A stretch of 64,000 nt of DNA from an uncultured Peptoniphilaceae bacterium (GCA_964432945.1 CAYSPO010000001.1:21506-85505), one strand, 5' to 3'. Positions 5,155 through 33,485 are shown, counted from the stretch's first letter. Notes: generated from the letters alone by a model not told the origin. Translations and numbers: made by a program.

Positions 5155-5158
5155 GAAA

Positions 5159-5836
5159 ATGTATATTCCAATAATGTTAAAAGTAAAAAATAAAAAAGTT
5201 AAAGTTTTTGGGGGAGGGCCTGTTGCTTATAGAAAATCTAAGAAATTTTTAGATGAAGGAGCAGAAGTAACAGTTATAAGCCCTGATTTTATAAAAAAAT
5301 TTGAAGATATAAAAGATTTTTGTATAAAAAGACCTTACAAGAAAAGTGATTTACTAGATATAGATATAGTTATAGCTGCCACTAATGATAGAAATATAAA
5401 CTTAGAAATTTCATCTTACTGCGAGGATAAAGGTATTCTTGTTAATGTTGCAGACTCTAAAGAAGAGTCCAGCTTCATACTACCTTCAAAAATAGATACA
5501 GGTGGTTTAGTAATTTCTTTTTCTACATTAGGAAAATATCCAGCATTATCTAGGTCTTTAAGAATGGAATTAGAAGATAAGTTTTCAATTTATGATAAAG
5601 AATATTTAGATTTATTAGAATTATATAGGCAAAAAATATTAAAAGAAAACCCTGAAAATAAGCTGGAGCTTCTTAGACAGGCACTAACTTATAGTAAGGG
5701 GGAAATTGAAAATTTGCTATATTTAATATTTTATAATATAGATGGGAATGAGGTTAGAATCCTCAGCAGCCCCGCTACTGTATTACTGAGCAAACCTAGA
5801 TATGCCACTGAAAGGGAAGGCCTAGGTAAGCTTTGA
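5159..5836 (+). CDS. precorrin-2 dehydrogenase / sirohydrochlorin ferrochelatase (SirC / CysG N-terminal type)
   Basis: Rossmann motif VFGGGPVAYRKSKKFLDEGAEVTVISP and AATNDRNIN resemble the siroheme-synthase N-terminal domain. The last ~30 codons read into the riboswitch aptamer. Confidence 0.7.
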   Translation: MYIPIMLKVKNKKVKVFGGGPVAYRKSKKFLDEGAEVTVISPDFIKKFEDIKDFCIKRPYKKSDLLDIDIVIAATNDRNINLEISSYCEDKGILVNVADSKEESSFILPSKIDTGGLVISFSTLGKYPALSRSLRMELEDKFSIYDKEYLDLLELYRQKILKENPENKLELLRQALTYSKGEIENLLYLIFYNIDGNEVRILSSPATVLLSKPRYATEREGLGKL

Positions 5837-5870
5837 CGTTAAGCCAGGACACCAGAATTCTTCGGAGGGA
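5735..5870 (+). promoter_or_regulatory. cobalamin (B12) riboswitch upstream of cbiMNQO
   Basis: Conserved blocks are present: GGGAAUGAGGUUAGAAUCCUC, GCCCCGCUACUGUA, GCCACUG, GGGAAGGC, and the B12 box AAGCCAGGACACC. The downstream CUUCUCCU (5882..5889) could pair with the cbiM RBS AGGAGGG (5901..5907). Confidence 0.85.
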
Positions 5871-5911
5871 AGTATATTTACTTCTCCTAGCAAAAATAAT
5901 AGGAGGGAAAA

Positions 5912-6637
5912 ATGAAGAAAAAAGCTAAAAAATTATTAAAAGTTTATGTGTTATTAGCTGTCATTTTATTGCCAACAATGGCAGGAGCTATGCACATAAT
6001 GGAAGGATATCTACCAAAGGTACATTCATTAATTTGGTCATTGATTTCACTTCCATTTGTAATCTACGGTGCAAAGAGTGCATCAAAAGTAACAAAGGAG
6101 TACCCTGATAAAAAGCTATTACTAGCAATGGCAGGTGCTTTTACATTTTTATTATCATCATTAAAAATACCATCAGTAACAGGATCTTGTTCTCATCCAA
6201 CTGGTATAGGTTTTGGAGCAATTATATTTGGGCCAGGACCGATGTTTATAATTGGAGTTATTGTTTTATTATTCCAAGCTTTGTTATTAGCTCATGGAGG
6301 AATTACAACTCTTGGAGCAAATACTTTTTCAATGGCTATTGTTGGTTCTCTAGTTTCTTATGGACTATTTAAGTCACTGAAAAAAACAGGAATAAATGAA
6401 TATGTAAATGTATTTATTGCTGTAACTCTAGGAAATCTTGCAACTTATGCAACAACTGCTCTGCAATTAGCAATAGCTTTTCCAGCAGGAAATTTTGCAG
6501 GTGAATTAGTTAAGTACCTTTCAATATTTGCTCTAACCCAAGTTCCTATTGCAATAGTAGAAGGTTTATTATCTACTTTAATTTATGAAAGAGTTAAGAA
6601 ATATGACGGTGGAGGTTTATTATATGAAAACATCTAG
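5912..6637 (+). CDS. cbiM: cobalt ECF transporter substrate-capture component CbiM
   Basis: After the signal-like N-terminus there is an MHIMEGYLP motif. Polytopic membrane protein, followed by cbiN/Q/O. Confidence 0.9.
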   Translation: MKKKAKKLLKVYVLLAVILLPTMAGAMHIMEGYLPKVHSLIWSLISLPFVIYGAKSASKVTKEYPDKKLLLAMAGAFTFLLSSLKIPSVTGSCSHPTGIGFGAIIFGPGPMFIIGVIVLLFQALLLAHGGITTLGANTFSMAIVGSLVSYGLFKSLKKTGINEYVNVFIAVTLGNLATYATTALQLAIAFPAGNFAGELVKYLSIFALTQVPIAIVEGLLSTLIYERVKKYDGGGLLYENI

Positions 6638-6908
6638 TAAGGTAATAATTATAATTTTAATCCTAGCAATTATAATTGCTCCGCTTTATCTGCTTCCAGA
6701 TGCAGATTTCGAAGGAGCAGATGATGAAGGTATGGACACTCTTGCTGAAAATAACCCAGAATATGAAGCATGGGCAGAACCATTTATTGAACCAGCTAGT
6801 GGGGAAATAGAATCACTTTTATTTGCCAGCCAAGCAGCTCTAGGAGCATCTGTAATTGGATATTATTTTGGAGTAAGTAAAGGTAAAAGAAATGTTGAAG
6901 ATAGATAA
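6624..6908 (+). CDS. cbiN: cobalt transport protein CbiN
   Basis: Small two-TM protein. I prefer ATG 6624, preceded by GGAGG, over the track start 6585. Confidence 0.8.
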   Translation: MKTSSKVIIIILILAIIIAPLYLLPDADFEGADDEGMDTLAENNPEYEAWAEPFIEPASGEIESLLFASQAALGASVIGYYFGVSKGKRNVEDR

Positions 6909-7569
6909 ACTTGCCTATGAGAATAATTTATTTAAAATTAGGCCAAGTTTAAAAGTGGGCATGAGTATGTTATTACTCATGCTCTCTATTATTATAGACA
7001 ATAATTTTATTAAGTTTAATATAGTATTATTAAATATTTTAGTTTGTATAGTTTTTGCTAAAATTCCTTTTTTAGAATATTTGAAGTTATATAGAATACC
7101 TTTAGTTTTTCTTATATTAGGTCTGGTTAGTATGATTTTATCAATAAGTAAAGACAACAGGGACTATATATTTTCCTTTAATGTTTTTAATTTTTATCTT
7201 GGAGTCTCTGAGAATTCTCTGATTAATGGATTTAACACTTTTATTAGGTCTATTTCAGCATTAAGTTCTACCTATTCTTTGATATTAACTACTCCAATTA
7301 ACCAGCTTATTAATTTTCTGAAATCCATAAAATTTCCTATTATAATTACTGAACAGCTACTGCTTATATACAGATTTATAAATGTATTTTTAGAAGAACT
7401 AGAAAAAATGAAAATAGCAATGGAGTTAAAGCAAGGATATGGTAAAAAGAAAAATTGGATAAAAAGTCTTTCTCTTATAGGAAGTTCATTGTTTATAAAA
7501 ATAATGAATTCTTTTAAGGATTATTCTTTAACACTTGAACTTAAACACTTTAATGGAGACTTTTATTAG
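6892..7569 (+). CDS. cbiQ: cobalt ECF transporter T component CbiQ
   Basis: Polytopic membrane protein of about 225 aa between cbiN and the ECF ATPase. Overlaps the cbiN end. Confidence 0.8.
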   Translation: MLKIDKLAYENNLFKIRPSLKVGMSMLLLMLSIIIDNNFIKFNIVLLNILVCIVFAKIPFLEYLKLYRIPLVFLILGLVSMILSISKDNRDYIFSFNVFNFYLGVSENSLINGFNTFIRSISALSSTYSLILTTPINQLINFLKSIKFPIIITEQLLLIYRFINVFLEELEKMKIAMELKQGYGKKKNWIKSLSLIGSSLFIKIMNSFKDYSLTLELKHFNGDFY

Positions 7570-7577
7570 GTGATTTT

Positions 7578-8393
7578 ATGATAGAGATTAAAAACTTGTG
7601 CTTTAAATATGACAATGGATATGAAGCTTTAAAAAATATTAATATGGAAATTAAAGAAGGACAAATTATCGGACTTATTGGAGAGAACGGATCTGGTAAA
7701 TCAACTCTTTTCCTTTCTATCCTAGGAATTAACAAAAAATCTCAAGGTGATATTTTATTCAGAGGTGAAAGTATCTCTTACAAGAAAACTTTTATGAGAG
7801 ATTATAGAAAAAAAGTAAATATGGTATTGCAAGATCCAGACAAACAAATATTTTATTCTGATGTCTATTCAGATATAGCCTTTGGACTTAAAAATTTAGG
7901 ATTAAGCGATAATGAGATTAAAAAAAGAGTAAATTCATCTTTGGAAGATTTAGAAATAAGTAATTTGAAAGATAAGGCTGTTCATTACTTAAGCTATGGC
8001 CAAAAGAAACGGCTTACGATTGCAGGGGTATTAGCTATGAATCCAGAGCTTATTCTATTAGATGAGCCTACAGCAGGCCTAGACCCTAGGCTTACCAAAC
8101 AGATGGTTAAAACCATTAAAAAATTAAAAGATAATAGTAAAACTATTTTAGTTTCATCTCATGATATGGATTTTATTTATGAAGTTTGTGACTATATATA
8201 TGTTATCAATAAAGGACAAATTATTAGTAATGGAAAGCCAGAAGAAGTTTTTATAGATGAAGAAAAAATTATATCTGCAGGTTTAAGTTTACCAATGTTA
8301 GTTAAACTCCATGTTAATACAAATTTACCTCTTTTTAAAGATGAAGATAGACTTTATAAATATATAAATAAATATAAAAATAATAATCAGTAA
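7578..8393 (+). CDS. cbiO: cobalt ECF transporter ATPase CbiO
   Basis: Walker A GENGSGKST, signature LSYGQKKR, Walker B LILLDEPTAGLD. Confidence 0.85.
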   Translation: MIEIKNLCFKYDNGYEALKNINMEIKEGQIIGLIGENGSGKSTLFLSILGINKKSQGDILFRGESISYKKTFMRDYRKKVNMVLQDPDKQIFYSDVYSDIAFGLKNLGLSDNEIKKRVNSSLEDLEISNLKDKAVHYLSYGQKKRLTIAGVLAMNPELILLDEPTAGLDPRLTKQMVKTIKKLKDNSKTILVSSHDMDFIYEVCDYIYVINKGQIISNGKPEEVFIDEEKIISAGLSLPMLVKLHVNTNLPLFKDEDRLYKYINKYKNNNQ

Positions 8394-10005: not shown

Positions 10006-10034
10006 TTGATTAATTATAAATTAGTATATATAAT
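10006..10034 (+). promoter_or_regulatory. candidate sigma-A promoter for the first Cys-Sec-COOH gene
   Basis: TTGATT, 17 nt, TATAAT, about 38 nt upstream of ATG 10073. AT-rich context makes chance matches common. Confidence 0.4.
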
Positions 10035-10072
10035 CAATTGAAAATAAATAATCTTAAAAAAAGGTGTGAAAT

Positions 10073-10576
10073 ATGGATCTTAAAAAGCTAAAAATTAAAA
10101 ATATATTACTAGTTATATTTGCTATAGGAGTGTTATATATAGGATTTACCAGCTTTAATACTGGAACAGAAGATGACGTAGTGGATATAGGTGTATCTGA
10201 AGATAATGAATTATTGAAGTATTTTAGAAAAAGCTATCCTGATTATGAGGTTCTCAAAGCTGGTGAAGAAGATGTAGATGCAAATGGATTTAATGATCTA
10301 GTTGTTATTTATAATATTTCAAGAGATAAGCTAGGTTACCCTACAAAAAACGAAATGTTAGTTATATTAAATAATAATGGTGTTTATGAAATGACTCAAT
10401 CTACAAGAGCACCTATTGAAAAACATGTAATACAGTTTCAAAACATTGAAAATGATGATAGGTATGAAATAACAGTCTCTGGTTCAAAAAGAGGGCAATA
10501 TGGTTTTGGTATATATGAAATAAAAGACAATGCTCTTGTGAATATATATGGTGAAGGAATGGAAAAATGCTGATAG
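10073..10576 (+). CDS. membrane-anchored protein ending in Cys-Sec-COOH (TGA 10571..10573 read as selenocysteine, real stop TAG 10574..10576)
   Basis: Has an N-terminal TM helix. It is a paralogue of 15355..15897, and both end ...GEGM(E/D)xC with the identical hexamer context TGC-TGA-TAG. A hairpin follows in the 3' UTR. This may correspond to the family I recall being named 'Cys-Cys-COOH (seleno)protein SaoC'; I cannot verify that here. Confidence 0.7.
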
Positions 10577-10585
10577 AAAATATGT

Positions 10586-10602
10586 ATGCTTAGGATAAGC
10601 AT
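10586..10602 (+). promoter_or_regulatory. candidate SECIS hairpin (3' of TGA 10571)
   Basis: ATGCTTA-GGA-TAAGCAT, starting 15 nt after the TGA. The apical loop contains GG. Confidence 0.5.
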
Positions 10603-10650
10603 GAATAAGAAAACTTTATATAAGAATAAAAAATTAAAATGATACAATCG

Positions 10651-10681
10651 TTGGGTTAAAGTCGACTTTAATGTTTATACT
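10651..10681 (+). promoter_or_regulatory. MerR-type promoter/operator P1
   Basis: TTGGGT (-35), a 19-nt spacer, then TATACT (-10). The perfect 16-bp palindrome TTAAAGTCGACTTTAA (10656..10671) lies inside the spacer. Confidence 0.6.
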
Positions 10682-10696
10682 TAGAAGGAGGTGAAT

Positions 10697-11248
10697 ATGA
10701 TGAAAATCAAAGATGTAAGTGAATTGACAGGTTTAGCTGGATCCACTATAAGATATTATGATAGCTTAGGACTATTAGGTCCTATAGATAGATTATCAAA
10801 TAATTATAGAAAATTCAATAAACATGATGTAGATATACTTAATTTTATCTCTGAGTCTAGAGATCTTGGTTTTTCTCTTGCCGAAGTTAAAGAAATTTTG
10901 CAAATGAAAAATAGCGGTAAAGAGCCATGTGCGTATGTTGAGAATAAGATTAAGGAAAAAATTACCTTAATAGATGAACATATAAAAGATTTGGAAAAGA
11001 AAAGAGTTGAACTTAACAAGCACTTAGAAATTGGACATTCTGTTTGTGGTTGTCATGGTAATGTTTGTCATTATATTGAAGGCTTAGTTGGAGTAGAAGA
11101 GGAGGATTCATCGACTTGTTCCTGTGGGTGTGAAGAAGAAATAGAGAAATCATCAGGATGTTCTTGTGGATGTGAAGAAGAAACTGAGTTAGACAATTCT
11201 TGTTCATCAAAGAATTCTTCTAAAAACAAGGGTTGTAGCTGCTGTTAG
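10697..11248 (+). CDS. MerR-family metal-responsive transcriptional regulator with a Cys-rich C-terminal tail
   Basis: HTH MKIKDVSELTGLAGSTIRYYDSLGLL. Cys residues in EPCAY and VCGCHGNVCH sit at positions comparable to the three metal-ligand cysteines of MerR. The tail has SCGCEEE repeats and ends GCSCC. Start is ATG 10697 or 10700, after AAGGAGG. Confidence 0.85.
   Translation: MMKIKDVSELTGLAGSTIRYYDSLGLLGPIDRLSNNYRKFNKHDVDILNFISESRDLGFSLAEVKEILQMKNSGKEPCAYVENKIKEKITLIDEHIKDLEKKRVELNKHLEIGHSVCGCHGNVCHYIEGLVGVEEEDSSTCSCGCEEEIEKSSGCSCGCEEETELDNSCSSKNSSKNKGCSCC
11117..11188 (+). repeat. tandem 42-nt-period coding repeat (CSCGCEEExE twice) in the regulator tail
   Basis: TGTTCCTGTGGGTGTGAAGAAGAAATAGAG (11117..11146) and TGTTCTTGTGGATGTGAAGAAGAAACTGAG (11159..11188). 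Confidence 0.8.
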
Positions 11249-11279
11249 GCTGAATTACTTATCTTACCTATAGAAAGTT

Positions 11280-12080
11280 GTGATTATGGGAAAAATAAAG
11301 ATAGAGAATTTCAGAAATTTTATCAATTTATTTTTAATAGCTATAATTATTGGACTATCTATAATAATTTTTAAAAATAATAATCCAAAAATAAAAGAAA
11401 ATAATAATAAGCCTGTAATCAGAATTGGTGCAGGTGATGATATATCAGGAATTGTTCTTGACTATATGCAGTCAGAAACTAATGAATTTAAGTTAGAACC
11501 TTATTTTATCAAAGATTGCTGAGCGACTACTTCTCAATGGGCATTGAGTAGTAATGCGTATTCTATGGCAATTGTTTGTAAAGATGCTGCAAAAAAGTAT
11601 ATAGACACAAGTCCTGATTTTGAAATTATAGGACCTGTAATTATGAATTCAGACATAGTTTTAGAGTCGACTAGAGATATTACAAGTGTAGGTATTACAA
11701 GTAAGAAAAGTTATCACAGAGATTTTGTTCGTGAATTATATGGTGAAGATGTTGAAATTATTGAGCTTATGCCTCAAAGTTTGCCATATGTTTATGAAAC
11801 AGCAAGAGTCGATGCAATAATAACTGATATAACAAAATTTACGAGTAACATAAAAGGAGAAGTGAAAAGTCCTAGTCAGGAAGATTATGTAACAAATATT
11901 TTAATAGCAAGAAGTGATTTTATTGGAACTAAAGAATATAAAGATTTTGTTAATAAATATAATGAAATCGTAAATGAACTAAATTCTGAAGGTCTTCCTA
12001 TTGATTATATAGAGAAAAAAACAAATTTAGATGAAGGGAGTTATGAGTATTGGAAAGTAAAGCTACTAACAATAAAGTAG
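11280..12080 (+). CDS. membrane-anchored ABC substrate-binding-like selenoprotein (Cys-Sec at TGC-TGA 11517..11522)
   Basis: Track ORFs 11280..11522 and 11544..12080 are in the same frame, separated only by the TGA and 7 sense codons. Joined length is about 266 aa with an N-terminal TM anchor. It lies directly upstream of the cognate permease and ATPase. A hairpin follows the TGA. Confidence 0.65.
11528..11553 (+). promoter_or_regulatory. candidate SECIS hairpin (3' of TGA 11520)
   Basis: TACT/AGTA plus CTCAAT/ATTGAG stems with one T-T mismatch. Apical loop is GGGC. Confidence 0.5.
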
Positions 12081-12847
12081 TCTCATTTTTTCAAGATGAG
12101 ACTACCAAACATACATTAGCAAGATTACTTACATATGGAACACTCATTTTAGTTTGGCATCTTTTAGCCACTTATATCGATATACCACTTGTTTTGCCCG
12201 CTCCATTAGATACATTAAGGGCTTTTATAGACAGTATCATCGATATTAAAGTTATGAGCAATGTTGGTATAACTTTAATGAGAGTTCTAAAGGGATGGGG
12301 ATTAGCCTTAGTCTTTGGAATACCTATCGGTATTGCAATGGGATTATCTCCTATTTTTGACAGTGTTTTTGGAGGTATAGTTAACTCTTTAAGACAAGTG
12401 CCAATGATGGCTTGGGTACCTCTTTCAATTATTTGGTTTGGAATTGGTGATGGTCCAACGTTATTTATGATTGCACTAAATGGAGTTTTCCAAATCATTA
12501 TGAATACATCTTCAGGTGTGGCTAATATTTCTGAAGATTATTATAATGCAGCCAAAAGCATGGGTGCTAGTAAACTAAGTATCTTTAAGAACATTATTAT
12601 CCCAGCAGCTCTACCAGATATGTTAACTGGAGCAAGATTAGCCATTGGAGCTGGCTGGATGTCTGTTATCTGAGCGGAGTTCATTGCGACAAGTGCCGGG
12701 CTCGGCTACGAAATGATAGAAGCACAATCTATGATGCAAACTAATAAACTTATAGCGTTAATGTTTTTAGCAGCATTTATAGGGTTTTTAATTGACAATG
12801 TAATACAATTTCTAAATAAGAAATTAACAAAATGGAGATATGTATAG
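12050..12847 (+). CDS. ABC transporter permease (NitT/TauT-SsuC type) with in-frame TGA 12671..12673 read as selenocysteine
   Basis: TTG start 9 nt after GAAGGGAG. After the TGA, 57 further sense codons (AEFIATSAGLGYEMIEAQ...LMFLAAFIGFLIDNVIQ...) run to TAG 12845..12847. They align residue-for-residue with the C-terminus of the paralogue at 30608..31453 (VAAEMLPGSMSGLGYLIAHA...IICIGLIGALFDAIYS). The next gene starts at 12848. Confidence 0.75.
12693..12709 (+). promoter_or_regulatory. candidate SECIS hairpin (3' of TGA 12671)
   Basis: A locally GC-rich hairpin, GTGCCG-GGCT-CGGC(T)AC, in an otherwise AT-rich gene. The loop contains GG. Confidence 0.45.
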
Positions 12848-13633
12848 ATGAAATTAGTTGTTGATAATTTATGTAAATCTTATTCGAATTCAGGAGAAGA
12901 TAATCATGTTTTAGAAAATATTAGCTTTTCAGTTGAAGAAGGAGAGGTTGTAACCCTTTTAGGTCCATCAGGATGTGGAAAGACAACAACTTTAACTATT
13001 ATAGCAGGTTTCAATGATTATGATTCAGGTCAAGTTTTATTAAATGGAGAATTAACAGACAAACCAGGTCCTAATAAGGGTTTTATGTTTCAAAACTATG
13101 CATTATTTCCTTGGATGACGGTAGAAGAAAATATTCGCTTTCCAATGAAGCAATTAAAATATGATAAAGAAAAAATCGATAAAAGAACTAAGTATTTATT
13201 AGATCTGGCTAGGTTGACTAAATACAAGGATTATTACCCTCATCAAATATCTGGGGGTATGAAACAAAGAAATTCTTTGGTGAGAGCATTAGCTCTTGAG
13301 CCAGAAATTTTATTGATGGATGAACCTCTTGGGGCTTTAGATATTGAAATGAGACAAAGTCTTCAAGATCAATTATTAGAAATATTTGATGATCTAAAAT
13401 TAACAGTAATAATAGTAACCCATGATGTGGAAGAAGCAATTTACTTGAGCGATAGAGTAATACTTATGTCCACAAATAAGGGTGAGATTATTTTGAACGA
13501 AAAAATAACTATGCCTCACCCAAGAAAAAGAAAAGATCCTCAATACCAACAATATGTAGATTTGTTATCAGAAAAGTTTATAGAAGCAAGTAAAAAAGGA
13601 GCACAAGCTCAAGGAAGTAGTGAAGATGAATAG
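12848..13633 (+). CDS. ABC transporter ATP-binding protein (NitT/TauT family)
   Basis: Walker A GPSGCGKTT, signature ISGGMKQR, Walker B LLMDEPLGALD. Confidence 0.9.
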   Translation: MKLVVDNLCKSYSNSGEDNHVLENISFSVEEGEVVTLLGPSGCGKTTTLTIIAGFNDYDSGQVLLNGELTDKPGPNKGFMFQNYALFPWMTVEENIRFPMKQLKYDKEKIDKRTKYLLDLARLTKYKDYYPHQISGGMKQRNSLVRALALEPEILLMDEPLGALDIEMRQSLQDQLLEIFDDLKLTVIIVTHDVEEAIYLSDRVILMSTNKGEIILNEKITMPHPRKRKDPQYQQYVDLLSEKFIEASKKGAQAQGSSEDE

Positions 13634-14270
13634 TAAAATAGATATTTCAGAAGTTCTTACACATGAAGATAATTTAACTTCAGATGAAAAGTTTTATAGA
13701 TTAAAAATTGTAGAAAAACTGGCAACAGAAGATAGACCTATTAGATTAAATGAGCTTCCAGAAATAAGCTCTCAAATGTATGAAATTCTCCACGACAAAG
13801 GAGCTATTGTATTAGATGAAAATAAAGAAAATATAATGTATGCTTACCCTGTTTCAGGGCCGCATACAAACCATGAAATTCATTTGGCAGATGGCAGGGT
13901 CTTTCATTCTATGTGTGCTATAGACTCTCTTGGCTCTACTTTTACCTTTGGACAAGATTTAACTATAAAATCTCAGTGTTCTACCAGTGGAAAAGAAGTT
14001 ATTGTAGAAATAGAGAATGGAAAAATTAAATCTACAAATGCTGATGATATTTATGCTATTCATGTTGATTTAAATGCATTTGAAGAATGGTCAGCTAGCT
14101 GCTGAAATGTTATGAATTTTTTCCGTGGGAAAGAAAACATGATTGAATATTACGAAGGAAATGAACTTGACGAAAAGACTAGCTTTGGTCTTGATTTAGA
14201 TACAGCATTTAAAGTAGGAAAAAAAGTTTTTAGTGTTGAACATACCTTATATGAATTTGTAGTTAAGTAA
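13620..14270 (+). CDS. organomercurial-lyase (MerB) family selenoprotein (Cys-Sec at TGC-TGA 14100..14105)
   Basis: FHSMCAIDSL matches MerB YAWCALDTL (Cys96/Asp99). SASC-U-NVMNFF matches MerB SFCCHVHFF (Cys159/Cys160). Reading through the TGA adds 54 codons to TAA 14268..14270, giving 216 aa, which is MerB-like length. Start is GTG 13620 or ATG 13626. Confidence 0.75.
14112..14140 (+). promoter_or_regulatory. candidate SECIS hairpin (3' of TGA 14103)
   Basis: ATG..TTTTTTCC-GTG-GGAAAGAA..CAT imperfect hairpin with a G-rich apex. Confidence 0.4.
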
Positions 14271-14281
14271 GGAGGGATTGG

Positions 14282-15352
14282 ATGTTTTTGTCATATATTA
14301 AAGAAATTTTACTCGCTTCATTAGATTTACTTAACGGTACATCCGCTTGGCTTATTGCAAGTTACCTTTTAGCAGGACTTACAAGAGATATAATTTCACC
14401 AGCTAGGCTGCAAAAGTCTTTAGGGAATACAAAAATATCCTCTATTATAAAATCTACATTACTAAGTATGTGTTTACCTGTATGTAGCTGTGGATCAGTT
14501 CCCTTAGGTATAAGTATGTATGAATCAGGGGCTTATGTCGGGCCAACCTTAGCATTTTTTGCAGGCTCTCCTATCTTAAATCCAGCTTCAATTATTTTGA
14601 GCTTTGGTTTGTTAGGTAAAGAAATCACTCTTATAAATATTGGAGCAGGTTTAATTTTACCTATTATAATCGGAGTTTTGGGAAATAAATTAGCTGGCGA
14701 TGAGCTTATGGATACCAAAATTCAAAAAGAGATAGAAAATATTAAAATTGAAAAAGATGAAAGATCTATTTTCTCAAAAATGAAATCAGGACTTAAATGG
14801 GTAAATAGTGAATTTGCTGTTAATTCTAGCAAATATATAGTTTTTGGTATGCTTTTTGGAGGGTTTTTATTAGTATCTTTTCCTCAAGCATTTATTCAAA
14901 AATATCTCGGTGATCCGGGAGTTATGACACTTTGGAATGTTGCACTTCTGGCTACTCTTATGTATGTATGTGCAGTAGGGCATATTCCTTTTATTGCAGC
15001 TTTGATAGCTAGTGGGGCATCCCCTGGAGCAGCTATAACATTTTTAATGGCAGGAGCAGCAACAAATATTCCAGAAATTATAAGTATAGGATCAATGATT
15101 GGTAAAAAAACAGCAGCCATCTATACTATTGTAATTAGTTCATTTTCTATGCTTGTAGGTATGATTACAAACAAGTTATTAATGCCTGGGTTTCAAAGGC
15201 AAATTGAATATGATGAAGTTGATAAAGCTATAAATACTGCTAATAGTCTTTTATTAAGTTTTCCTGATTGGGTTAAAAACTTATGTACTGCTATTGTAAT
15301 AATTTATTTTCTAAAGGCAATGTATAATTCTTTAATTAGAGATAGGATTTAA
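14282..15352 (+). CDS. polytopic permease, DUF318/ArsP-like family, CxC motif
   Basis: About 10 TM segments in a two-repeat architecture. Motif LPVCSCGSVPLG. Paralogue of 18162..19256 and more distantly of 46081..47121 (FCSCSSIP). Good RBS AGGAGGG. Confidence 0.8.
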   Translation: MFLSYIKEILLASLDLLNGTSAWLIASYLLAGLTRDIISPARLQKSLGNTKISSIIKSTLLSMCLPVCSCGSVPLGISMYESGAYVGPTLAFFAGSPILNPASIILSFGLLGKEITLINIGAGLILPIIIGVLGNKLAGDELMDTKIQKEIENIKIEKDERSIFSKMKSGLKWVNSEFAVNSSKYIVFGMLFGGFLLVSFPQAFIQKYLGDPGVMTLWNVALLATLMYVCAVGHIPFIAALIASGASPGAAITFLMAGAATNIPEIISIGSMIGKKTAAIYTIVISSFSMLVGMITNKLLMPGFQRQIEYDEVDKAINTANSLLLSFPDWVKNLCTAIVIIYFLKAMYNSLIRDRI

Positions 15353-15354
15353 CT

Positions 15355-15897
15355 ATGATTAATCTAGATAGGGAAAAGAGAATTATAAATATTTATTATA
15401 AGGAAAAGCTAGTTTTAACAATAGACGCAAGCTTAATGACTAAATTTTTTCTTACAGTAATAGTTATTCTAGTTGGTTATATAGGCTATATTCAAAACGC
15501 TAGTTTTAAAGAAGCAGATTTTGGAGTTGAAAAAGATAATCCACTTTTACTTTATTTTGAAGAAGAATTTCCTAATAATCCTGTTATCAAATGTAAATTA
15601 GGTGATGTAAATAACGATGGTAGAGATGATTTAATAGTTATTTACCAAATGCAGTTTCAAGATGGTAATGAATTGCGAGTGGTCTTTGATACAGATAATG
15701 GATATGAAGTTTCTAATCAAAATAGAGCTCCTTATGAAAACCAAACTATTGAATTAATTGATATAGATAATTCTCCTCCTATGGAATTTATTGCATCTGG
15801 CTCTAAAAGAGGAAGATATGGCTATGAGATTTATAGGGTTGATAATTCTACTCAGTTAGCCAGCGTCTTTGGAGAGGGAATGGATGTGTGCTGATAG
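15355..15897 (+). CDS. membrane-anchored protein ending in Cys-Sec-COOH (TGA 15892..15894 read as Sec, stop TAG 15895..15897)
   Basis: Paralogue of 10073..10576. They share blocks DVNNDGRDDLIVIY / DANGFNDLVVIY, SGSKRG(R/Q)YG and GEGM. Same TGC-TGA-TAG ending, with a downstream hairpin. Confidence 0.7.
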
Positions 15898-15906
15898 GTT
15901 TATAAA

Positions 15907-15922
15907 AAGTTCAGGTGAGCTT
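15907..15922 (+). promoter_or_regulatory. candidate SECIS hairpin (3' of TGA 15892)
   Basis: AAGTTC-AGGT-GAGCTT hairpin 13 nt after the TGA. The loop contains GGU. Confidence 0.45.
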
Positions 15923-15970
15923 ATATATAAGAAAATCTTATCCATTATAAATTAGCATAAGTAAATATTA

Positions 15971-16003
15971 TTAGACTATAAAGACGACTTTATAGTTTAT
16001 AAT
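15971..16003 (+). promoter_or_regulatory. second MerR-type operator/promoter P2
   Basis: ACTATAAAGACGACTTTATAGT (15975..15996) has core TAAAGACGACTTTA, matching 13 of 14 positions of the P1 core TAAAGTCGACTTTA. Its centre lies at the same distance from a -10 hexamer (TATAAT 15998..16003) as in P1. It could also fold as an RNA hairpin. Confidence 0.55.
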
Positions 16004-16075
16004 AATATTATGATATTGAGTATATATATATTCAACAAATAATGTTATACATAGGTAAAACTTTTAGGAGGAAAT

Positions 16076-17329
16076 ATGAAAAAGAAAGTATTAGCAAGCA
16101 TATTAGCTTGTACTCTTATTCTTTCATCTTTTACTGCTTGTAAAAACTCTGGAACATCATCTGTAGAAAAAATCGAATATGATCCTGTAGCAGAGCTTGA
16201 AAATTTCGAATTAAGAGAAATACCAGAAGCAGATAAAGATTTCAAAATTGAGATGGGCTATAATAACTGTGACCATATGGTTGGAGCTATTATAGGGGAA
16301 GAAGCAGGAATTTATGACGCTTTAGACTTAAATGTAAATGTAACTCAAACTAACAATACAAACATAGCTCAAGCCATGTCAACTAATGAAATGCAAGTTG
16401 GTTATATGGGAATTGACGGAGCAATAAGATCTCACAATGAAGGAGCACCTCTATTTATGAGTGCTGCAAATCATATTGGTGGATCAAGATACTTAGTAGC
16501 TTCTAATGATATTAAAAAGCCAGAAGATTTAATTGGTAAAACATTAGGAATTTCTCAAGATACAGCGAATAACCCAGAATGGTTACAATGGGCAAAAGAA
16601 TTAGGAATTCCAGCAGAAGCTGAAAACTATGAAATAGTAGAAATAGCACAAAAAGATGGACCTTTAGCTTTAAAAGCAGGACAAATAGATGCATTCGCTT
16701 GCTGTGATCCGTTTGCTTCACAATCAGAGCTTATGGAAGTTGGCCACATTATGGCAATAGGTTGGGGAACTGATGTAGAACAAGCTGAAAGTAATGATGC
16801 ATGGGGCATGTGCTGTATACATGCTATGAACCAAAACTTTGAAAAAGAACATCCAGAACTAGCTCAAAGACTTATGGTAGCTCATATATTAGCAGTTCAA
16901 TACTTATATGAACATCCATACAATGCGGCTATGATGTTTGCTGAAGGGTTTGGGACAACACCAGAAGTTGGTTTATTAACAGTATATATGAAGACTGTTG
17001 CTGAAGGTAGAACAATAACTTGGGAATTTGATGAAGAAAACCTTAAAAACTTCGTAAAAGAGTATGAAGATTGGAATGTTGATCCAGAGAAAATTCCTGA
17101 TTTAAGTAAAATAGAATCATTTATGGGTAAAAATATGCTTGAAGAAAGCAATATTATGCACTTTGAGGATTACCTAGAAGAATCAAATTTAGATGAAGTA
17201 TTCCCACTTGGAATGCCATTTGAAGATTGGTTAGCGAAAGCTAAAGCAATAGATGGTATTGATAATGAAATGGGTAATGATATTAAAGTTCCAGAAATTT
17301 ACCAAGAACAAGGATACTCAGCTAACTAA
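16076..17329 (+). CDS. ABC substrate-binding lipoprotein (NMT1/SsuA-like, NitT/TauT family)
   Basis: Signal peptide plus lipobox SSFTAC. About 417 aa and SsuA/NMT1-like (...GQIDAFACCDPFASQ...). Strong RBS AGGAGG. Confidence 0.75.
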   Translation: MKKKVLASILACTLILSSFTACKNSGTSSVEKIEYDPVAELENFELREIPEADKDFKIEMGYNNCDHMVGAIIGEEAGIYDALDLNVNVTQTNNTNIAQAMSTNEMQVGYMGIDGAIRSHNEGAPLFMSAANHIGGSRYLVASNDIKKPEDLIGKTLGISQDTANNPEWLQWAKELGIPAEAENYEIVEIAQKDGPLALKAGQIDAFACCDPFASQSELMEVGHIMAIGWGTDVEQAESNDAWGMCCIHAMNQNFEKEHPELAQRLMVAHILAVQYLYEHPYNAAMMFAEGFGTTPEVGLLTVYMKTVAEGRTITWEFDEENLKNFVKEYEDWNVDPEKIPDLSKIESFMGKNMLEESNIMHFEDYLEESNLDEVFPLGMPFEDWLAKAKAIDGIDNEMGNDIKVPEIYQEQGYSAN

Positions 17330-17340
17330 AAAATTAAAAT

Positions 17341-17369
17341 AATAGGATCATTTATGATCCTATTATTTT
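17341..17369 (+). terminator. rho-independent terminator
   Basis: AATAGGATCA-TTTA-TGATCCTATT followed by ATTTTG. Confidence 0.6.
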
Positions 17370-17466
17370 GTTATTATCAATTAGTATAAGAAATTTTTAT
17401 GATAAAGAATGATTATGCTTAATGAAATTAAACTATGCTAAAATATAGTAAGTAAGAGGAGTGTGT

Positions 17467-17730
17467 ATGAGAGATAAGGTTTTAGTGGAATTTATCAACA
17501 CTTGACCTAGTTGTGATTCACTTGGCAGGTCGGTTCAAGAAGTAGCATCACAATTTGGAGATAAGGTCGAGGTAAAGCTTTATTTCGCAGGAAAAGATGT
17601 TGAATATATTGCCAAATATGGAATGATATATTCAGGGACGATGATAATTAATGAAACTAAAAAAGTACAAAGACTTAGCAGATCTAATATTGAAAAAGAA
17701 ATTAGGGCTGCAGTAGAAGAAATTCAGTAA
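17467..17730 (+). CDS. small thioredoxin-fold selenoprotein with UxxC motif (TGA 17503..17505); not in the ORF track
   Basis: ATG 17467 follows AGAGGAG. Translation is MRDKVLVEFINT-U-PSCDSLGRSVQEVASQFGDKVEVKLYF...GTMIINE...EEIQ, 87 aa, stop TAA 17728..17730. It aligns with the CxxC protein at 45731..46069 (ILGSGCAKCKQLE...). A long hairpin follows the TGA. Confidence 0.7.
17511..17553 (+). promoter_or_regulatory. candidate SECIS hairpin (3' of TGA 17503)
   Basis: Outer stem TTGTGAT/ATCACAA and inner stem CTTG/CAAG. The apical region is GCAGGUCGGUU, which contains GGUC. Confidence 0.5.
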
Positions 17731-17747
17731 AATATTGGAGGTATTTA

Positions 17748-18080
17748 ATGAGAGTTGCTTACGTAATGGGTTCAGAAAATGCTAGAAAGACAGTTAGAGA
17801 TATGATAGTTCCACAAATGGAAGCAAGGGAACATGTTGCAGAAGTTGTAGCAATGTTTTTTACATATGACACAACTTTTATGCTGTTAAAAGATACTGAT
17901 CTTGGAAATAGACTTCAAAAGTTAGCTGATGAAAAAGGCTTGATGATAGTTGCTTGTGACCAATGTGTTATTGAAAGGGAAATTGATGATAAGCTTATTC
18001 CTGCAGCAAGTTTAGGATGCTTTCCAATGGTTTATGGAGCATTAAATAGTGCAGATATAGACCAAGTTATATCCATCTAA
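17748..18080 (+). CDS. DsrE/DsrF-like sulfur(selenium)-relay family protein
   Basis: 110 aa with a DsrE-like pattern (MRVAYVM..., IVACDQCV active-site-like Cys). RBS GGAGG. Confidence 0.6.
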   Translation: MRVAYVMGSENARKTVRDMIVPQMEAREHVAEVVAMFFTYDTTFMLLKDTDLGNRLQKLADEKGLMIVACDQCVIEREIDDKLIPAASLGCFPMVYGALNSADIDQVISI

Positions 18081-18098
18081 TCGGATTAATGTACTTGA

Positions 18099-18140
18099 AA
18101 TAAGCATCAATCTTAAATTAGATTGATGCTTATTATTTTT
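18099..18140 (+). terminator. rho-independent terminator
   Basis: 15-bp stem AATAAGCATCAATCT / AGATTGATGCTTATT followed by ATTTTT. Confidence 0.7.
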
Positions 18141-18161
18141 GCGAAATATGAGAGGTGAGAA

Positions 18162-19256
18162 GTGAATTTTATTAGAGAAGTAATTTTAACAGCATTAGAA
18201 CTATTAAACGGAACATCAACATGGATAGTAGTAAGTTACATAATAGCTGGACTACTTCATGATGTTATATCACCAGTAAGGTTTCAAAAAGGCTTAGGTA
18301 ATACTAAATTTTCTTCTATTGTAAAGGCAACCTTATCTGCTATGATTATTCCTATATGTAGCTGTGGATCTGTTCCTTTAGGAATCAGCTTATATTATTC
18401 GGGAGCTTATCTAGGGCCAACCCTAGCATTCTTAGCATCGAGCCCATTTTTAAATCCAGCAGCAATTATTATGAGTCTAGGACTTTTAGGTTGGGAGATA
18501 ACTTTAATTAATATAATAGCAGGGCTTTTCCTTCCTCTTTTAATAGGGGTAATTGGAAATAAAATAGGTGGAGATGAATTAAGAAAGCCTATGCTAGAAG
18601 AAGAAATAGTTAATATTTCTTTAGAAGAATCAGACGATAGAAGTCTTGTTGAAAAATTTAAATCAGGATTAATTTGGGTTTCTAATGATCTTGCATTAAC
18701 TTTAAGTAAATATACAGTCTTGGGAATGCTTTTAGGAGGATTGATATTATCTATTTTTCCAGAAAGCTTTATTCAAGAATATTTAGGTAATCCTTCATTA
18801 TTATCCTTGATGAATGTAGCAGTAATGGGAACGATAATGTATGTTTGTGCAGTAGGACATATTCCATTTATTGCAGCTTTAATAGTAAGCGGAGCATCTC
18901 CAGGCTCAGCTATTACTTTTTTAATGGCAGGAGCAGCAACAAATGTTCCAGAATTATATAGTATATATAAAATGATAGGAAAGAAAACAGCAGCTATATA
19001 TGGATTTATTGTAACAATTTATGCTTTTATTATCGGATATATCACAAACTTAATTTTAATGCCAGGATTTAAGCCAGTAGCTGATTTTTCTCAAGCAAAT
19101 AAATCGATTGAAATTGCAAACAGATTTCAATTTACAATTCCAGATCCAATTAACTGGATTTGTACAGTAATATTATTAATATTTTTTATAAAAAGTATTC
19201 GTCCATTTTTAGAAGATTTTGCTTACAAAATAAAAGGATTTTTTATAGAAGATTAA
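18162..19256 (+). CDS. polytopic permease, DUF318/ArsP-like family, CxC motif (paralogue 2)
   Basis: GTG start after GAGAGGTGAG. Motif IPICSCGSVPLG. Collinear and highly similar to 14282..15352. Confidence 0.8.
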   Translation: MNFIREVILTALELLNGTSTWIVVSYIIAGLLHDVISPVRFQKGLGNTKFSSIVKATLSAMIIPICSCGSVPLGISLYYSGAYLGPTLAFLASSPFLNPAAIIMSLGLLGWEITLINIIAGLFLPLLIGVIGNKIGGDELRKPMLEEEIVNISLEESDDRSLVEKFKSGLIWVSNDLALTLSKYTVLGMLLGGLILSIFPESFIQEYLGNPSLLSLMNVAVMGTIMYVCAVGHIPFIAALIVSGASPGSAITFLMAGAATNVPELYSIYKMIGKKTAAIYGFIVTIYAFIIGYITNLILMPGFKPVADFSQANKSIEIANRFQFTIPDPINWICTVILLIFFIKSIRPFLEDFAYKIKGFFIED

Positions 19257-25436: not shown

Positions 25437-26093
25437 ATGGAAAATAAAGAAAGACTAGATGGACAAAAAGACCACTGGAATTCAATGCTTGGAAAAAACA
25501 AAGAAATGTTTGGAGAAGATCCAAGTTTTTCAGGAATAAAAGCTGCCGAAGTGTTTAAGGAAAATGGGGTTAAAACAATTTTAGAGCTTGGTGCTGGACA
25601 AGGAAGAGATACCTTTTATTTTATAAAAGAAGGCTTCAATGTTCATGTCCTTGATTACTCTCAAGAAGGACTAAACGATATAAAAGCTAAAGCTAAGGCG
25701 TTGGGCGTAGAAGATAAAATAAAGTGTGATCTTGTAGATTTAAGAAAAGAAATATCACTGGAAGATGAATCTTTTGATGCTTGTTACTCTCATATGCTAT
25801 ATTGCATGGCATTTACAAAAGCTGAATTAAAGCATCTTACAAATGAAGTTAAAAGAGTATTAAAAGTAGGAGGTATTCAGGCATATACTTCACGAAATAC
25901 TAGGGATTCTGACTTTGGAAAGGGAGATCATCTAGGAGATAATCTTTATGTAGATGGTGGATTTATCATTGAATTTATAGATGAAGAAATGATAAAAGAT
26001 TATTCAGAAGGTTTTGAAATTATAGAAAATACTGAATTTGAAGAAGGAGGATTACCAAGAGTTCTAACTTTAATTATTCAAAAAAAATTATAA
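25437..26093 (+). CDS. class I SAM-dependent methyltransferase
   Basis: Motif I ILELGAGQGRD plus an acidic post-I residue (VLDYS). About 218 aa. Confidence 0.75.
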   Translation: MENKERLDGQKDHWNSMLGKNKEMFGEDPSFSGIKAAEVFKENGVKTILELGAGQGRDTFYFIKEGFNVHVLDYSQEGLNDIKAKAKALGVEDKIKCDLVDLRKEISLEDESFDACYSHMLYCMAFTKAELKHLTNEVKRVLKVGGIQAYTSRNTRDSDFGKGDHLGDNLYVDGGFIIEFIDEEMIKDYSEGFEIIENTEFEEGGLPRVLTLIIQKKL

Positions 26094-26422: not shown

Positions 26423-27595
26423 TTATAACATTTCAATAAAAGCAGAAATTCTTGTTGCTAACTGACCTTTGTCATTATCTGAGTAATCAGTTTCTATTTT
26501 CATATAAGGAATTCCTAAGTCTTCTTTTATTCCTTTTTCCATTTTAACTGCTTCAATATTAAATGTATGGCAAGATTGTAAAACTACATCAATAACCCCA
26601 TCTACTTGATATTTTTCACAAAGGTGTTTTGTATGCTCTATTCTATCATCATTAGGAGACATAACAGCGCAGCTAATTTCTAGATATCTATCGGAAATTG
26701 CTCTTAAGATATCATCAGCCTCAGTATCTACCATCATTTTCATAGTTCTTTCTCCACCACAGTTATCGTTACTAACTATGATAGCACCATTTTGTTCAAT
26801 CACATTACATACCTTATCTATAACTCCTCCAGTTGGACAGCCTGTAACTAGAATTCTTGGGGTATTAGGAGCTACGAGATAATTAGGATCTTTGGAATAT
26901 TGTTCTAAGGCTTGATCGATTGTGTTGCTAACTAACTCCGTTGAGTCTTCAACGGTGAATTGAAAAACATTTCTTTGAAGTGAAAGTGCAACTTGGCTAC
27001 CTGTTATTGCGGGTGGATTATATCCTTGAATTTCCATTAACTTCACATAACCTTCTCTCCAAGCATTTCTTCTTTTAGCAGCATTTCTAAGGTCTTCATC
27101 AGTAATTTCTATATCAAATAATTCTTCCAATTTCTCTTTTAAAAGTTTACATTCTTCATACCATATATCCCTTGCATAAGACCTATTTTGTGCTTGGGGT
27201 AGTTGCATTATATGAACATCTTTTAATTCCCCAAGAAGTTCATACATTTTTTTCTTACCATCACAAGTAGTTTCACCGATAATTAAATCAGAGAACCAAG
27301 TATAAGGACAGGTTTCAGTATAAGCAAAACCATATGTACTTTTAATAAGGGGACACATATTTTTAGGAAGAACTTTTTCTGCATCAGGTATAACTGAATC
27401 AGAAGTCCCACATAGACCAACAGCTGAAGCTCCTGCTGCTTCTATAATTTCAGTAGGAGTATAGGAACAAAGAGTTCCAATTAGTCTGCCACCATTTTCT
27501 TTAAACTCTTTTACATTTACAAAGCCTTCCTTTCTAGCTTCTTCAAATTCTTCAAAAGTTTTAGGAAGTAGGGCTTTTTCTTTTACTTTTTCCAT
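26423..27595 (-). CDS. double-cubane-cluster / 2-hydroxyacyl-CoA dehydratase (HgdB/BcrB) family anaerobic reductase, copy 1
   Basis: 390 aa with Cys-rich motifs LCSYTP, GLCGTS, NMCPLIKS and GETTCDGKKK typical of this family. Paralogue of 32316..33485. Confidence 0.7.
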   Translation of the reverse strand: MEKVKEKALLPKTFEEFEEARKEGFVNVKEFKENGGRLIGTLCSYTPTEIIEAAGASAVGLCGTSDSVIPDAEKVLPKNMCPLIKSTYGFAYTETCPYTWFSDLIIGETTCDGKKKMYELLGELKDVHIMQLPQAQNRSYARDIWYEECKLLKEKLEELFDIEITDEDLRNAAKRRNAWREGYVKLMEIQGYNPPAITGSQVALSLQRNVFQFTVEDSTELVSNTIDQALEQYSKDPNYLVAPNTPRILVTGCPTGGVIDKVCNVIEQNGAIIVSNDNCGGERTMKMMVDTEADDILRAISDRYLEISCAVMSPNDDRIEHTKHLCEKYQVDGVIDVVLQSCHTFNIEAVKMEKGIKEDLGIPYMKIETDYSDNDKGQLATRISAFIEML

Positions 27596-28922: not shown

Positions 28923-28925
28923 AAA

Positions 28926-32315: not shown

Positions 32316-33485
32316 TTATAGCATCTCTATAAAAGCAGATATACGCGTAGTTAATTGACCTTTATCATTATCTGAGTAGTCAGTTTCTATTTTCATATAA
32401 GGAATTCCTAAATCTTCTTTAATTCCTTTTTCCATTCTAACTGCTTCTATATTAAAAGTATGGCAAGATTGTAAAACTACATCAATAACTCCATCAACTT
32501 CATATTTCTCGCAAAGCTCTTTTGTATGTTCCACTCTATTAGTGTTTGGAGACATAACAGCACAACTAATTTCAAGATACCTATCAGAAATTGCTCTTAA
32601 GATATCATCAGCTTCAGGATCTATCATCATATTCATAGTACGTTCACCGCCGCAATTATCATTACTTACAATAACTGCACCATTAGCTTCGATCACATTA
32701 CATACCTTGTCTATAACTCCACCAGTTGGGCAGCCTGTAACTAATATTCTTTTATTTGAAGGATCTACAGGATAGATTCCATTTTTATGATTTTCTAAAG
32801 CTTCTTCAATTGTATTATCTATTGTCTCTGTAACATCATTTACATCAAAACTGAATAGATTTTTTTGCATAGCTAGTGCAACTTCGCTACCAGTAATAGC
32901 AGGAGGATTCATTCCTTGAAGGGCAAATAATTTTTTATATGCTTCTCTTTGTTTATTTCTTTTTCTAACTGCTTCTCTTAAATCTTCATCAGTTATTTTT
33001 ATGTCATAAATATTTTCTAACTTTTCTTTTAGAAGCTTACATTCCTCATACCAAGCATCACTTGCCCATTCTCTATTTTGAGCTTGAGGTAATTGCATTA
33101 CATAAGTTTCTTTTATATCATTTAGAAGTTCATACATTTTTTTCTTTCCATCACAAGTAGTTTCACCTATGATTAAATCAGAAAACCAAGTATATGGGCA
33201 AGTTTCAGTATAAGCAAAGCCATATGTACTTTTGATAAGAGGACACATATTCTTAGGAAGAACTTTTTCTGCATCTGGAACAACCGCATTTGACGTACCA
33301 CAAAGCGCTACTCCAGAAGCTCCTGCTGCCTCTATAATTTCAAGAGGTGTATAAGAACAAAGGAAACCTACAACTCTTCCTCCATTTTCTTTGTATTCTT
33401 TTACATGAATAAATCCAGCTTGCCTAGCTTCTTCAAACTCATCAAAAGTCTTAGGTAAGACTTGTTTTTCTTTAACTTTATCCAA
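32316..33485 (-). CDS. double-cubane-cluster / HgdB-BcrB family anaerobic reductase, copy 2
   Basis: 389 aa, collinear with copy 1. The last ~55 residues are almost identical. Confidence 0.7.
   Translation of the reverse strand: MDKVKEKQVLPKTFDEFEEARQAGFIHVKEYKENGGRVVGFLCSYTPLEIIEAAGASGVALCGTSNAVVPDAEKVLPKNMCPLIKSTYGFAYTETCPYTWFSDLIIGETTCDGKKKMYELLNDIKETYVMQLPQAQNREWASDAWYEECKLLKEKLENIYDIKITDEDLREAVRKRNKQREAYKKLFALQGMNPPAITGSEVALAMQKNLFSFDVNDVTETIDNTIEEALENHKNGIYPVDPSNKRILVTGCPTGGVIDKVCNVIEANGAVIVSNDNCGGERTMNMMIDPEADDILRAISDRYLEISCAVMSPNTNRVEHTKELCEKYEVDGVIDVVLQSCHTFNIEAVRMEKGIKEDLGIPYMKIETDYSDNDKGQLTTRISAFIEML

Follow-up and report, generated by a model that had tools for sequence, protein, structure and literature searches.

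The selenocysteine-assisted organometallic (SAO) system was named by Haft and Gwadz (preprint 10.1101/2022.07.06.499078; J Bacteriol 2023, 205:e0025922), whose preprint, so far as its text was available, counts six of the nine SAO protein families as selenoproteins and ties the system to the NCBIfam models NF040727-NF040736. They proposed there that repeated CU and CC motifs (U is selenocysteine, Sec) convey a mercury-like metal, probably in organometallic form, from the cell exterior to a lyase resembling MerB, and that SaoE is the partner for efflux. A May 2026 review lists the same Sao families and states that their roles await investigation, and a full-text literature search returned no experimental paper on Sao proteins. 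Here we analyse a stretch of 64,000 nucleotides from an uncultured Peptoniphilaceae bacterium (GCA_964432945.1, CAYSPO010000001.1:21506-85505; "the window", 64 kb, positions counted from its first nucleotide), and we think it quite likely that an uncultured anaerobe of the class Tissierellia carries a complete, chromosomal SAO locus here, at 10-19 kb, with Sec decoding, ligand route and MerR control included. An annotation made earlier without database searches (the original prediction) had described this region as a mer-like, MerR-controlled island in which six selenoprotein genes form a hand-over-hand relay for a soft metal or metalloid, and had mentioned "Sao" family names for it; the names were right, but the acronym does not stand for "selenium-associated operon" as it had supposed. 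The novelty that it implied does not hold because the SAO system, its six selenoprotein families and their curated hidden Markov models had been described already, and its relay hypothesis is essentially that of Haft and Gwadz.

The locus is a member of this known kind that carries extra copies of saoC and saoE. The published motifs are present (CU in SaoB, SaoL and SaoC, U at the SaoP gate, UxxC in SaoT, CSC in SaoE, CC in SaoX and CxxC in SaoD), and the locus resembles other SAO loci in being chromosomal, in its low-GC Firmicute-like genome and in having double-cubane reductases nearby. It differs in its gene order, in the second saoC and saoE, in its six Sec codons (the available preprint text gives four for C. 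difficile and three for C. botulinum), in the Sec form of both SaoC copies, and in containing a MerR-family regulator and operator, which are absent from that text. Shared with mer operons are a long-spacer promoter served by a sensor of the MerR family, a lyase with the MerB fold whose active site has Cys/Asp/Cys geometry, and paired thiol(ate) groups as the ligands between which hand-off takes place, whereas the proteins of the locus include no match to MerT, MerP or, as the original prediction had remarked, MerA in Pfam or NCBIfam, and SAO has an ATP-binding cassette (ABC) importer, ArsP-type efflux and Sec for Cys and is not plasmid-borne. The MerB models score 41 and 36.7 bits on SaoL against cutoffs of 193 and 200, so SaoL is not a member of those families, and the MerR equivalog model scores 66.3 against 150.85 on the regulator; both proteins have Pfam matches at the domain level only. 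HgcAB, as far as the available preprint text describes it, is alike in its CU dipeptide and CC-COOH tail, in proteins that handle a carbon-metal bond, but the locus has no homology to HgcA or HgcB.

The gene order is saoC1, merR-saoB-saoP-saoA-saoL-saoE1-saoC2, saoX, saoT-saoD and saoE2 (Table 1). All nine Sao families match curated NCBIfam models, seven of them above cutoff; SaoA and SaoD fall 5-7 bits under it, are top matches by a wide margin and keep their conserved operon positions, SaoA being 65-68% identical to Lagierella-type SaoA at the equal operon position and SaoD 67-68% identical to its Lagierella-type counterpart. Pfam finds generic domains only on the island (MerB, BPD_transp_1, ABC_tran, ArsP_1, NMT1, DsrE and MerR). 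NCBIfam and Pfam between them bear out the inventory of the original prediction: beside the MerR regulator, the island encodes the permease and ATPase of an ABC transporter, a lyase of the MerB family, two binding proteins, two Cys-Sec-COOH proteins and a pair of ArsP-like permeases, as well as one thioredoxin-fold and one DsrE-like protein. SaoE1 (68% identity to Lagierella SaoE) and SaoC2 (the orthologue of Lagierella SaoC, 54% identical to that of L. massiliensis) are orthologous to an adjacent E-C pair in Lagierella; SaoC1 is a divergent extra copy with ~35% identity to every other SaoC, and SaoE2 is 59% identical to SaoE1 and closest to the Tissierella simiarum SaoE (65.5%). The window has a G+C content of 30%, and the only sequences that match its SaoX at 100% identity are metagenome contigs (Logan SRR8925796 and SRR9699875), the nearest named relatives by SaoX being Lagierella (~62%) and Tissierella (~56%). 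The host is, as judged from these sequences, an uncultured Tissierellia-class anaerobe related to Lagierella and Tissierella.

Six plus-strand reading frames of the locus run through a TGA, at 10571, 11520, 12671, 14103, 15892 and 17503, and the coordinates and codon contexts given by the original prediction were correct in every case: TGC-TGA-TAG twice, TGC-TGA twice, ATC-TGA in the permease and TGA-CCT-AGT-TGT in a thioredoxin-like open reading frame (ORF). Read-through adds 185 codons to the binding protein by joining two ORFs at 11520 (266 aa), 57 codons to the ABC permease (265 aa) and 54 codons to the MerB-like protein (216 aa), while SaoC1 and SaoC2 would end in Cys-Sec at lengths of 167 and 180 aa. 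The ORF with UxxC around 17503 is real; its thioredoxin-like product of 87 aa matches NF040730 and has U-P-S-C close to the N-terminus. The NF040727 match to SaoB extends in one stretch across the TGA, that of NF040733 to SaoP crosses it, and the Pfam MerB match to SaoL (residues 81-204) spans it. Elsewhere in the window TGA is an ordinary stop, as had been claimed, for example at 823, 4424, 5834, 20785 and 53596, several of these being ATGA overlaps.

Each TGA was scored for a single hairpin whose apical loop of 3-14 nt begins 16-37 nt after the U and has a G within loop positions 1-2, on an upper stem of at least 4 bp, and the scores were compared with those of 300 other TGAs of the window by the Mann-Whitney test. 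A hairpin resembling a selenocysteine insertion sequence (SECIS) is found at all six, with a G-containing apical loop (GGA, GGGC, GGCU, GUG, AGGU and GGC, respectively) that begins 19-28 nt after the U; their folding energies (dG) of -3.9 to -9.2 kcal/mol place them in the top 0.7-9% relative to the controls, and jointly the six differ from the controls at p=4.7e-7. The claim that a hairpin with a GG or GGU apex follows every TGA was therefore right about the hairpins and right about the apex in five of the six, that of SaoL being GUG. As evidence the hairpins are strong in the case of SaoC, SaoB, SaoP and SaoL, and less so in that of the window's SaoT and SaoC2. Hairpin scores at the five ordinary TGA stops named above range from 0 to -3.6, none comparable to the Sec sites, and a scan of the whole window on both strands gave no further read-through candidate with a hairpin.

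The Sec positions were then compared by tblastn with 80 SAO loci from one-genome-per-species contigs (L003-L082), and the aligned codon was noted for each locus. All 320 orthologous codons are TGA, TGC or TGT: TGA and Cys codons number 23 and 46 in SaoC, 38 and 28 in SaoB, 75 and 2 (TGT) in SaoP, 42 and 1 (TGC) in SaoL, and 17 and 48 in SaoT, respectively. Single alignments span the TGA in 172 cases, the median number of residues aligned beyond it being 184 for SaoB, 55 for SaoP, 44 for SaoL and 73 for SaoT, and identity after the Sec is about the same as overall identity (in SaoP 40 of the 57 post-Sec residues are identical to those of L. massiliensis). In these respects the alignment to homologues and the per-site hairpin scoring that the original prediction had called for both came out in its favour. 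Several Oscillospiraceae and Flavonifractor loci have two tandem saoP genes, both with a TGA.

Since nothing is translated after the Sec of SaoC, the hairpin itself is the test there, and it separates the two kinds of SaoC orthologue: the median is -8.2 kcal/mol, mostly with GGU loops at +19 to +23, for the Sec type and 0 for the Cys type (p=1.8e-9). The SaoC stems are unrelated in sequence across lineages, with the pairing preserved and the GGU apex at +19 to +23, and in SaoT compensatory changes occur at five of the eight predicted pairs 3' of the TGA. No consensus SECIS fold emerged when RNAalifold was run on MAFFT alignments of the sequence 3' of the TGA in SaoC and SaoL, which is why hairpins were scored sequence by sequence; the hairpins downstream of SaoC and SaoL are either non-homologous in sequence or shifted in register between lineages. 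By this comparison, Sec decoding gives Cys-Sec or Sec-x-x-Cys sites in five protein families, and decoding of the six UGAs as Sec, aided by the hairpin just 3', is strongly supported; for this organism itself, whose 64 kb hold no genes for Sec machinery, insertion is inferred.

Sec-type SaoC makes up 23 of the 69 copies in the 80 loci, chiefly in Lachnospiraceae (Dorea, Bariatricus and Merdimonas) and Peptoniphilaceae; this is a much higher share than in the available text of the preprint (10.1101/2022.07.06.499078), which gives the Sec form in 3 of 52 species. A confident AlphaFold2 model of SaoC (mean predicted local distance difference score, pLDDT, 86.7) has an N-terminal membrane helix and a beta-rich domain that ends in the CU tail, and a Foldseek search of it against the PDB found nothing significant, the best hits being FG-GAP/beta-propeller blades (E=0.025, TM score ~0.42). 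A conserved SaoC loop, D-x-(D/N)-x-(D/N)-G-x-x-D-L-V-V-I-Y, is DxDxDG-like and consistent with the FG-GAP/beta-propeller hint. About two blades per chain could imply oligomerisation.

The regulator gene directly upstream of saoB encodes a protein that matches Pfam MerR_1 and MerR-DNA-bind and scores below cutoff with the CueR, CadR, ZntR and MerR equivalogs (best CueR, 82 bits against 147). Its closest solved relatives are CueR, CadR and MerR, and it carries C80, C119, C121, C126 and H127 as well as a Cys-rich tail; Cys80 aligns with CueR Ser77, a position that is Cys in sensors of divalent thiophilic metals (MerR, ZntR and CadR). It thus has the parts of a metal-sensing MerR protein that can be read from sequence, with putative ligand Cys both at the helix N-terminus and in a C-terminal loop, and is like CadR/PbrR, ZntR and CueR in its helix-turn-helix (HTH) plus dimerisation helix, its C-terminal Cys loop and 19-20 nt promoter spacers with a central dyad, and like the sensors of divalent thiophilic metals in the Cys at the Ser77 position. 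It differs from them in a loop with only four residues between two Cys, in matching no curated equivalog, and in its added tail (11094-11248) of ~50 residues with 13 Cys, (S/G)CSCGCEEE repeats and a terminal CSCC. The tail is unique to the window (found in none of 15 orthologues) and may be a metal-buffering or sensitivity-tuning extension. Regulator homologues, counted at >=40 bits within 10 kb of saoX, are present in 15 of the 80 further loci; in every case the gene is part of the SAO locus and directly precedes saoX, and these 15 are all Tissierellia (Lagierella, Mediannikoviicoccus, Parvimonas, Tissierella and related metagenome-assembled genomes). Cys80, Cys121, Cys126 and His127 are invariant in all 16 regulators, the last three in the motif C-x-G-x-x-C-H-Y-I-E-G.

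A long-spacer promoter with a central dyad is the hallmark of MerR-type activation through DNA distortion. Two such promoters, P1 and P2 (Table 1), precede merR-saoB-saoP-saoA-saoL-saoE1-saoC2 and saoX, with spacers of 19 and 20 nt, and the 14-mer TAAAGNCGACTTTA has exactly two exact matches in the 64 kb, one inside each. In each of the 15 related loci the sequence just ahead of merR or saoX reads TTGAC[AC]-20 nt-TAnAAT and contains this dyad or a degenerate form of it; only 24 matches to the pattern occur in the 298 kb of those loci, and another copy of the promoter lies further upstream in several loci of Tissierella. The MerR control that the original prediction had proposed is thus supported by two promoters that share a dyad and by the retention of this arrangement in every other merR-bearing locus. 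On balance we favour, by a modest degree of confidence, the view that SAO in Tissierellia is under a MerR-family metal sensor of its own, which would act on a conserved dyad in 19-20 nt spacers, with Cys80/Cys121/Cys126/His127 as its putative ligand set. Neither "MerR" nor "regulator" occurs in the available text of the preprint, a mention in PMC9879109 or PMC12013261 not being excluded, and the regulator with its operator is apparently an unreported, modest addition to SAO. In Tissierella sp. P1 (L015 3544-4057) an extra MerR-type promoter precedes a gene for a Csac_0668-family 2Fe-2S (seleno)protein (NF045877, 220.6 bits, cutoff 190).

Following Haft and Gwadz, a thiophilic metal, probably on an organic ligand, would be captured outside the cell by the SaoC tail, SaoB and SaoX and pass through the Sec-gated SaoP2-SaoA2 importer; SaoL, the MerB-like protein, would cleave the carbon-metal bond at a Cys/Asp/Cys-Sec site, SaoT and SaoD would handle the metal after this step, and SaoE would expel it. 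Import by SaoBPA and SaoX, export by SaoE, C-metal lyase activity of SaoL and the roles given to SaoC, SaoT and SaoD are all putative. In the Tissierellia the MerR-family sensor would switch the core operons on by binding the dyad in the over-long spacers, activating transcription once metal is bound by analogy with MerR, CueR and ZntR.

Several observations weigh against parts of this picture. Neither selA, selB, selC and selD nor a tRNA-Sec is found within the 64-kb window, the SaoT and SaoC2 hairpins are weak when taken alone (-4.5 and -3.9 kcal/mol, respectively), and the hairpin score does not split Sec-type from Cys-type orthologues of SaoB (p=0.5) or SaoT (p=0.94), likely because many of the Cys-type loci are from higher-GC genomes. 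The other 64 loci have no close regulator homologue within 10 kb of saoX at the threshold given above, and since the predicted operator is absent at saoC1, saoT-saoD and saoE2, the window locus appears to be only partly under MerR control. Substrate, transport direction and hand-off order are predictions for every Sao protein.

Could the six TGAs instead be true stops, so that the genes are truncated or split (pseudogenes or naturally short) and the frames beyond them due to chance? Standard gene callers do split or truncate these genes, and the Sec machinery is missing from the window (above), but six independent TGAs fall on columns that are Cys elsewhere and never another codon, homology continues after the TGA at the level seen before it, hairpins are present, and the TGAs are conserved in up to 75 loci; we regard this explanation as very improbable. 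Reading of TGA as a standard amino acid (Trp or Gly, genetic code 4 or 25) is less probable still: two of these TGAs do lie within genes that were called at read-through length on one short contig (L002) from this organism, but TGA ends at least five ordinary genes of the window, including ATGA overlaps, and the aligned residue in orthologues is always Cys and never Trp or Gly. The codon columns, the homology past the TGA and the hairpins together therefore exclude the pseudogene and alternative-code readings, both of which appear effectively refuted, and leave Sec decoding as the reading that we retain.

Given Sec decoding, the purpose of the locus can be seen in two ways, to which we assign roughly equal weight. 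A mer-like resistance or detoxification role, in which toxic organomercurials or another soft metal would be taken up, cleaved and exported under MerR induction, is a possibility that we hold only tentatively; it is favoured by the thiophilic-metal-type regulator and MerR-style promoters inside the locus, the two efflux permeases, the Cys-rich tail of the regulator and the placing of Sao proteins with heavy-metal resistance in the 2026 review. It fits poorly with a locus that is, by its context, not a mobile island: it is chromosomal, its G+C equals that of its flanks, the adjoining genes are housekeeping genes, there are no mobility genes at the locus, and no SaoX homologue occurs in 72,556 plasmids. 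Nor does it account for the lack of MerA or the association with double-cubane reductases, and the available preprint text (10.1101/2022.07.06.499078) argues that high-affinity import is odd for resistance in a monoderm and that selenium dependence is a liability. Haft and Gwadz propose a role in energy or carbon metabolism, in which a trace metal cycled catalytically through organometallic intermediates would feed the neighbouring double-cubane reductases; on this view MerR would only tune expression to metal availability. Two genes matching NF040772 lie 7 and 13 kb downstream of the locus, in line with the preprint's prediction (Table 1), double-cubane homologues occur within 10 kb of saoX in 33 of the 80 loci (the available preprint text reports a statistical association, with a family member nearby in 40%), and in Tissierella sp. 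P1 saoA and saoP have such a gene between them (L015 7252-8409), within the SAO operon; the conserved, chromosomal nature of the locus points the same way, and the published case, as far as its available text goes, also cites selenium dependence. That case is purely correlative, however, there is no known chemistry that links double-cubane enzymes to organometals, and a MerR-type inducible switch with duplicated efflux looks more like the handling of a toxic species, so that the metabolic role too seems to us possible rather than probable.

Table 1. Features of the SAO locus and the downstream double-cubane reductase genes in the 64-kb window; scores are in bits with the curated cutoff in parentheses, and dG is in kcal/mol.
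Feature	Coordinates	Strand	Description
saoC1	10073..10576	+	membrane-anchored Cys-Sec-COOH protein, 167 aa, U167 at 10571 then TAG; NF040734 141.9 (80)
saoC1 SECIS-like hairpin	10585..10603	+	3' untranslated region; UAUGCUUA-GGA-UAAGCAUG; dG -5.5, loop +22
P1	10651..10681	+	MerR-type promoter TTGGGT-19 nt-TATACT, upstream of merR-saoBPAL-E1-C2
P1 palindrome	10656-10671		TTAAAGTCGACTTTAA; perfect, inside P1
merR	10697..11248	+	183 aa from ATG 10697; in-frame GTG at 10691
saoB	11286..12080	+	substrate-binding selenoprotein; Cys-Sec dipeptide encoded 11517-11522; NF040727 214.1 (140)
saoP	12050..12847	+	ABC permease selenoprotein; U208 (TGA 12671) at gating position; NF040733 375.9 (295)
saoA	12848..13633	+	ABC ATPase; NF040729 355 (360)
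saoL	13626..14270	+	MerB-like lyase selenoprotein; Cys-Sec dipeptide encoded 14100-14105; NF040728 145.8 (140)
saoE1	14282..15352	+	ArsP-family efflux permease, CSC motif; NF040736 485.4 (325)
saoC2	15355..15897	+	Cys-Sec-COOH protein, U at 15892 then TAG
saoC2 SECIS-like hairpin	15907-15922	+	AAGUUC-AGGU-GAGCUU; dG -3.9
P2	15972..16003	+	MerR-type promoter TAGACT-20 nt-TATAAT, upstream of saoX
P2 dyad	15979-15992		TAAAGACGACTTTA; inside P2
saoX	16076..17329	+	extra substrate-binding lipoprotein; CC at 209-210 and 246-247; NF040735 459.9 (300)
saoX terminator	17335-17370		after saoX
saoT	17467..17730	+	thioredoxin-like selenoprotein, motif U13-P-S-C16, TGA 17503; NF040730 125.4 (65)
saoD	17748..18080	+	DsrE-like, CxxC; NF040732 161.9 (169)
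saoD terminator	18099-18134		after saoD
saoE2	18162..19256	+	second ArsP-family efflux permease, CSC motif
double-cubane (8Fe-9S) reductase 1	26423..27595	-	NF040772 489.6 (350)
double-cubane (8Fe-9S) reductase 2	32316..33485	-	NF040772 494.9 (350)

Between the two double-cubane genes lie a PatB-family C-S lyase (27744-28922), an NMT1-type binding protein (29160-30401) and SaoP/SaoA paralogues (30608-32232) that are without selenocysteine and have Ala at the gate position, and the block 26423-33485 has the look of another SAO-like importer, one that does without selenium and is linked to double-cubane enzymes. A molybdopterin oxidoreductase (42114-44318) resembles PhsA/Fdh and falls under all curated cutoffs; 16 of the 80 loci have a homologue of it (up to 50% identity) no more than 10 kb from saoX, and it is a possible further SAO association, absent from the available preprint text. 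A minus-strand cassette at 45731-47480 encodes an ArsR-family regulator, an MTH895/ArsE thioredoxin-like protein and an ArsP-like permease with a weak SaoE/SO_0444 match (116 bits); it repeats the SaoE/SaoT pairing in miniature and without selenium.

Two other genes of the window were considered as selenoprotein candidates and rejected: an MduS-like methyltransferase (25437-26093), which covers the first two-thirds of NF045649 (double selenoprotein MduS; 224.8 bits, cutoff 380), ends in TAA and has no Sec-containing extension, and a "diclust_near_Sec"-like ORF (62755-63867) has upstream stops. The flanks (1-8393 and 44515-56924) also hold cobalamin biosynthesis genes (CbiD, CbiG, CbiJ and methylases), a cobalamin riboswitch (5695-5874) ahead of CbiMNQO, a second such riboswitch (49062-49234), and a cluster of MtaA/URO-D-type methyltransferases, a corrinoid protein, a RACo activator and a CobW-like GTPase. 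Although these genes hint at organometallic chemistry, a cobalt or corrinoid link as a conserved feature was rejected: no cbi or Cbi-transport gene recurs near SAO in the 80 loci, and the adjacency of cbi genes to SAO is for that reason treated as coincidence, while that of the corrinoid methyltransferase genes at 44-57 kb is likewise not conserved in other genomes.

No denser cluster of selenoprotein genes is known in bacteria than SAO, which is found in gut anaerobes including C. difficile, and the locus described here is an unusually complete example, with six Sec codons spread over five protein families and with double-cubane reductase genes close by. If the proposed MerR control is correct, SAO expression would be induced by the system's own metal ligand, which bears on the choice between metabolism and detoxification, and a promoter-reporter fusion or binding by the purified sensor would be the first simple assay for the SAO metal. 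A regulator with a defined operator would in this way turn the question of the SAO ligand into a reporter or binding experiment.

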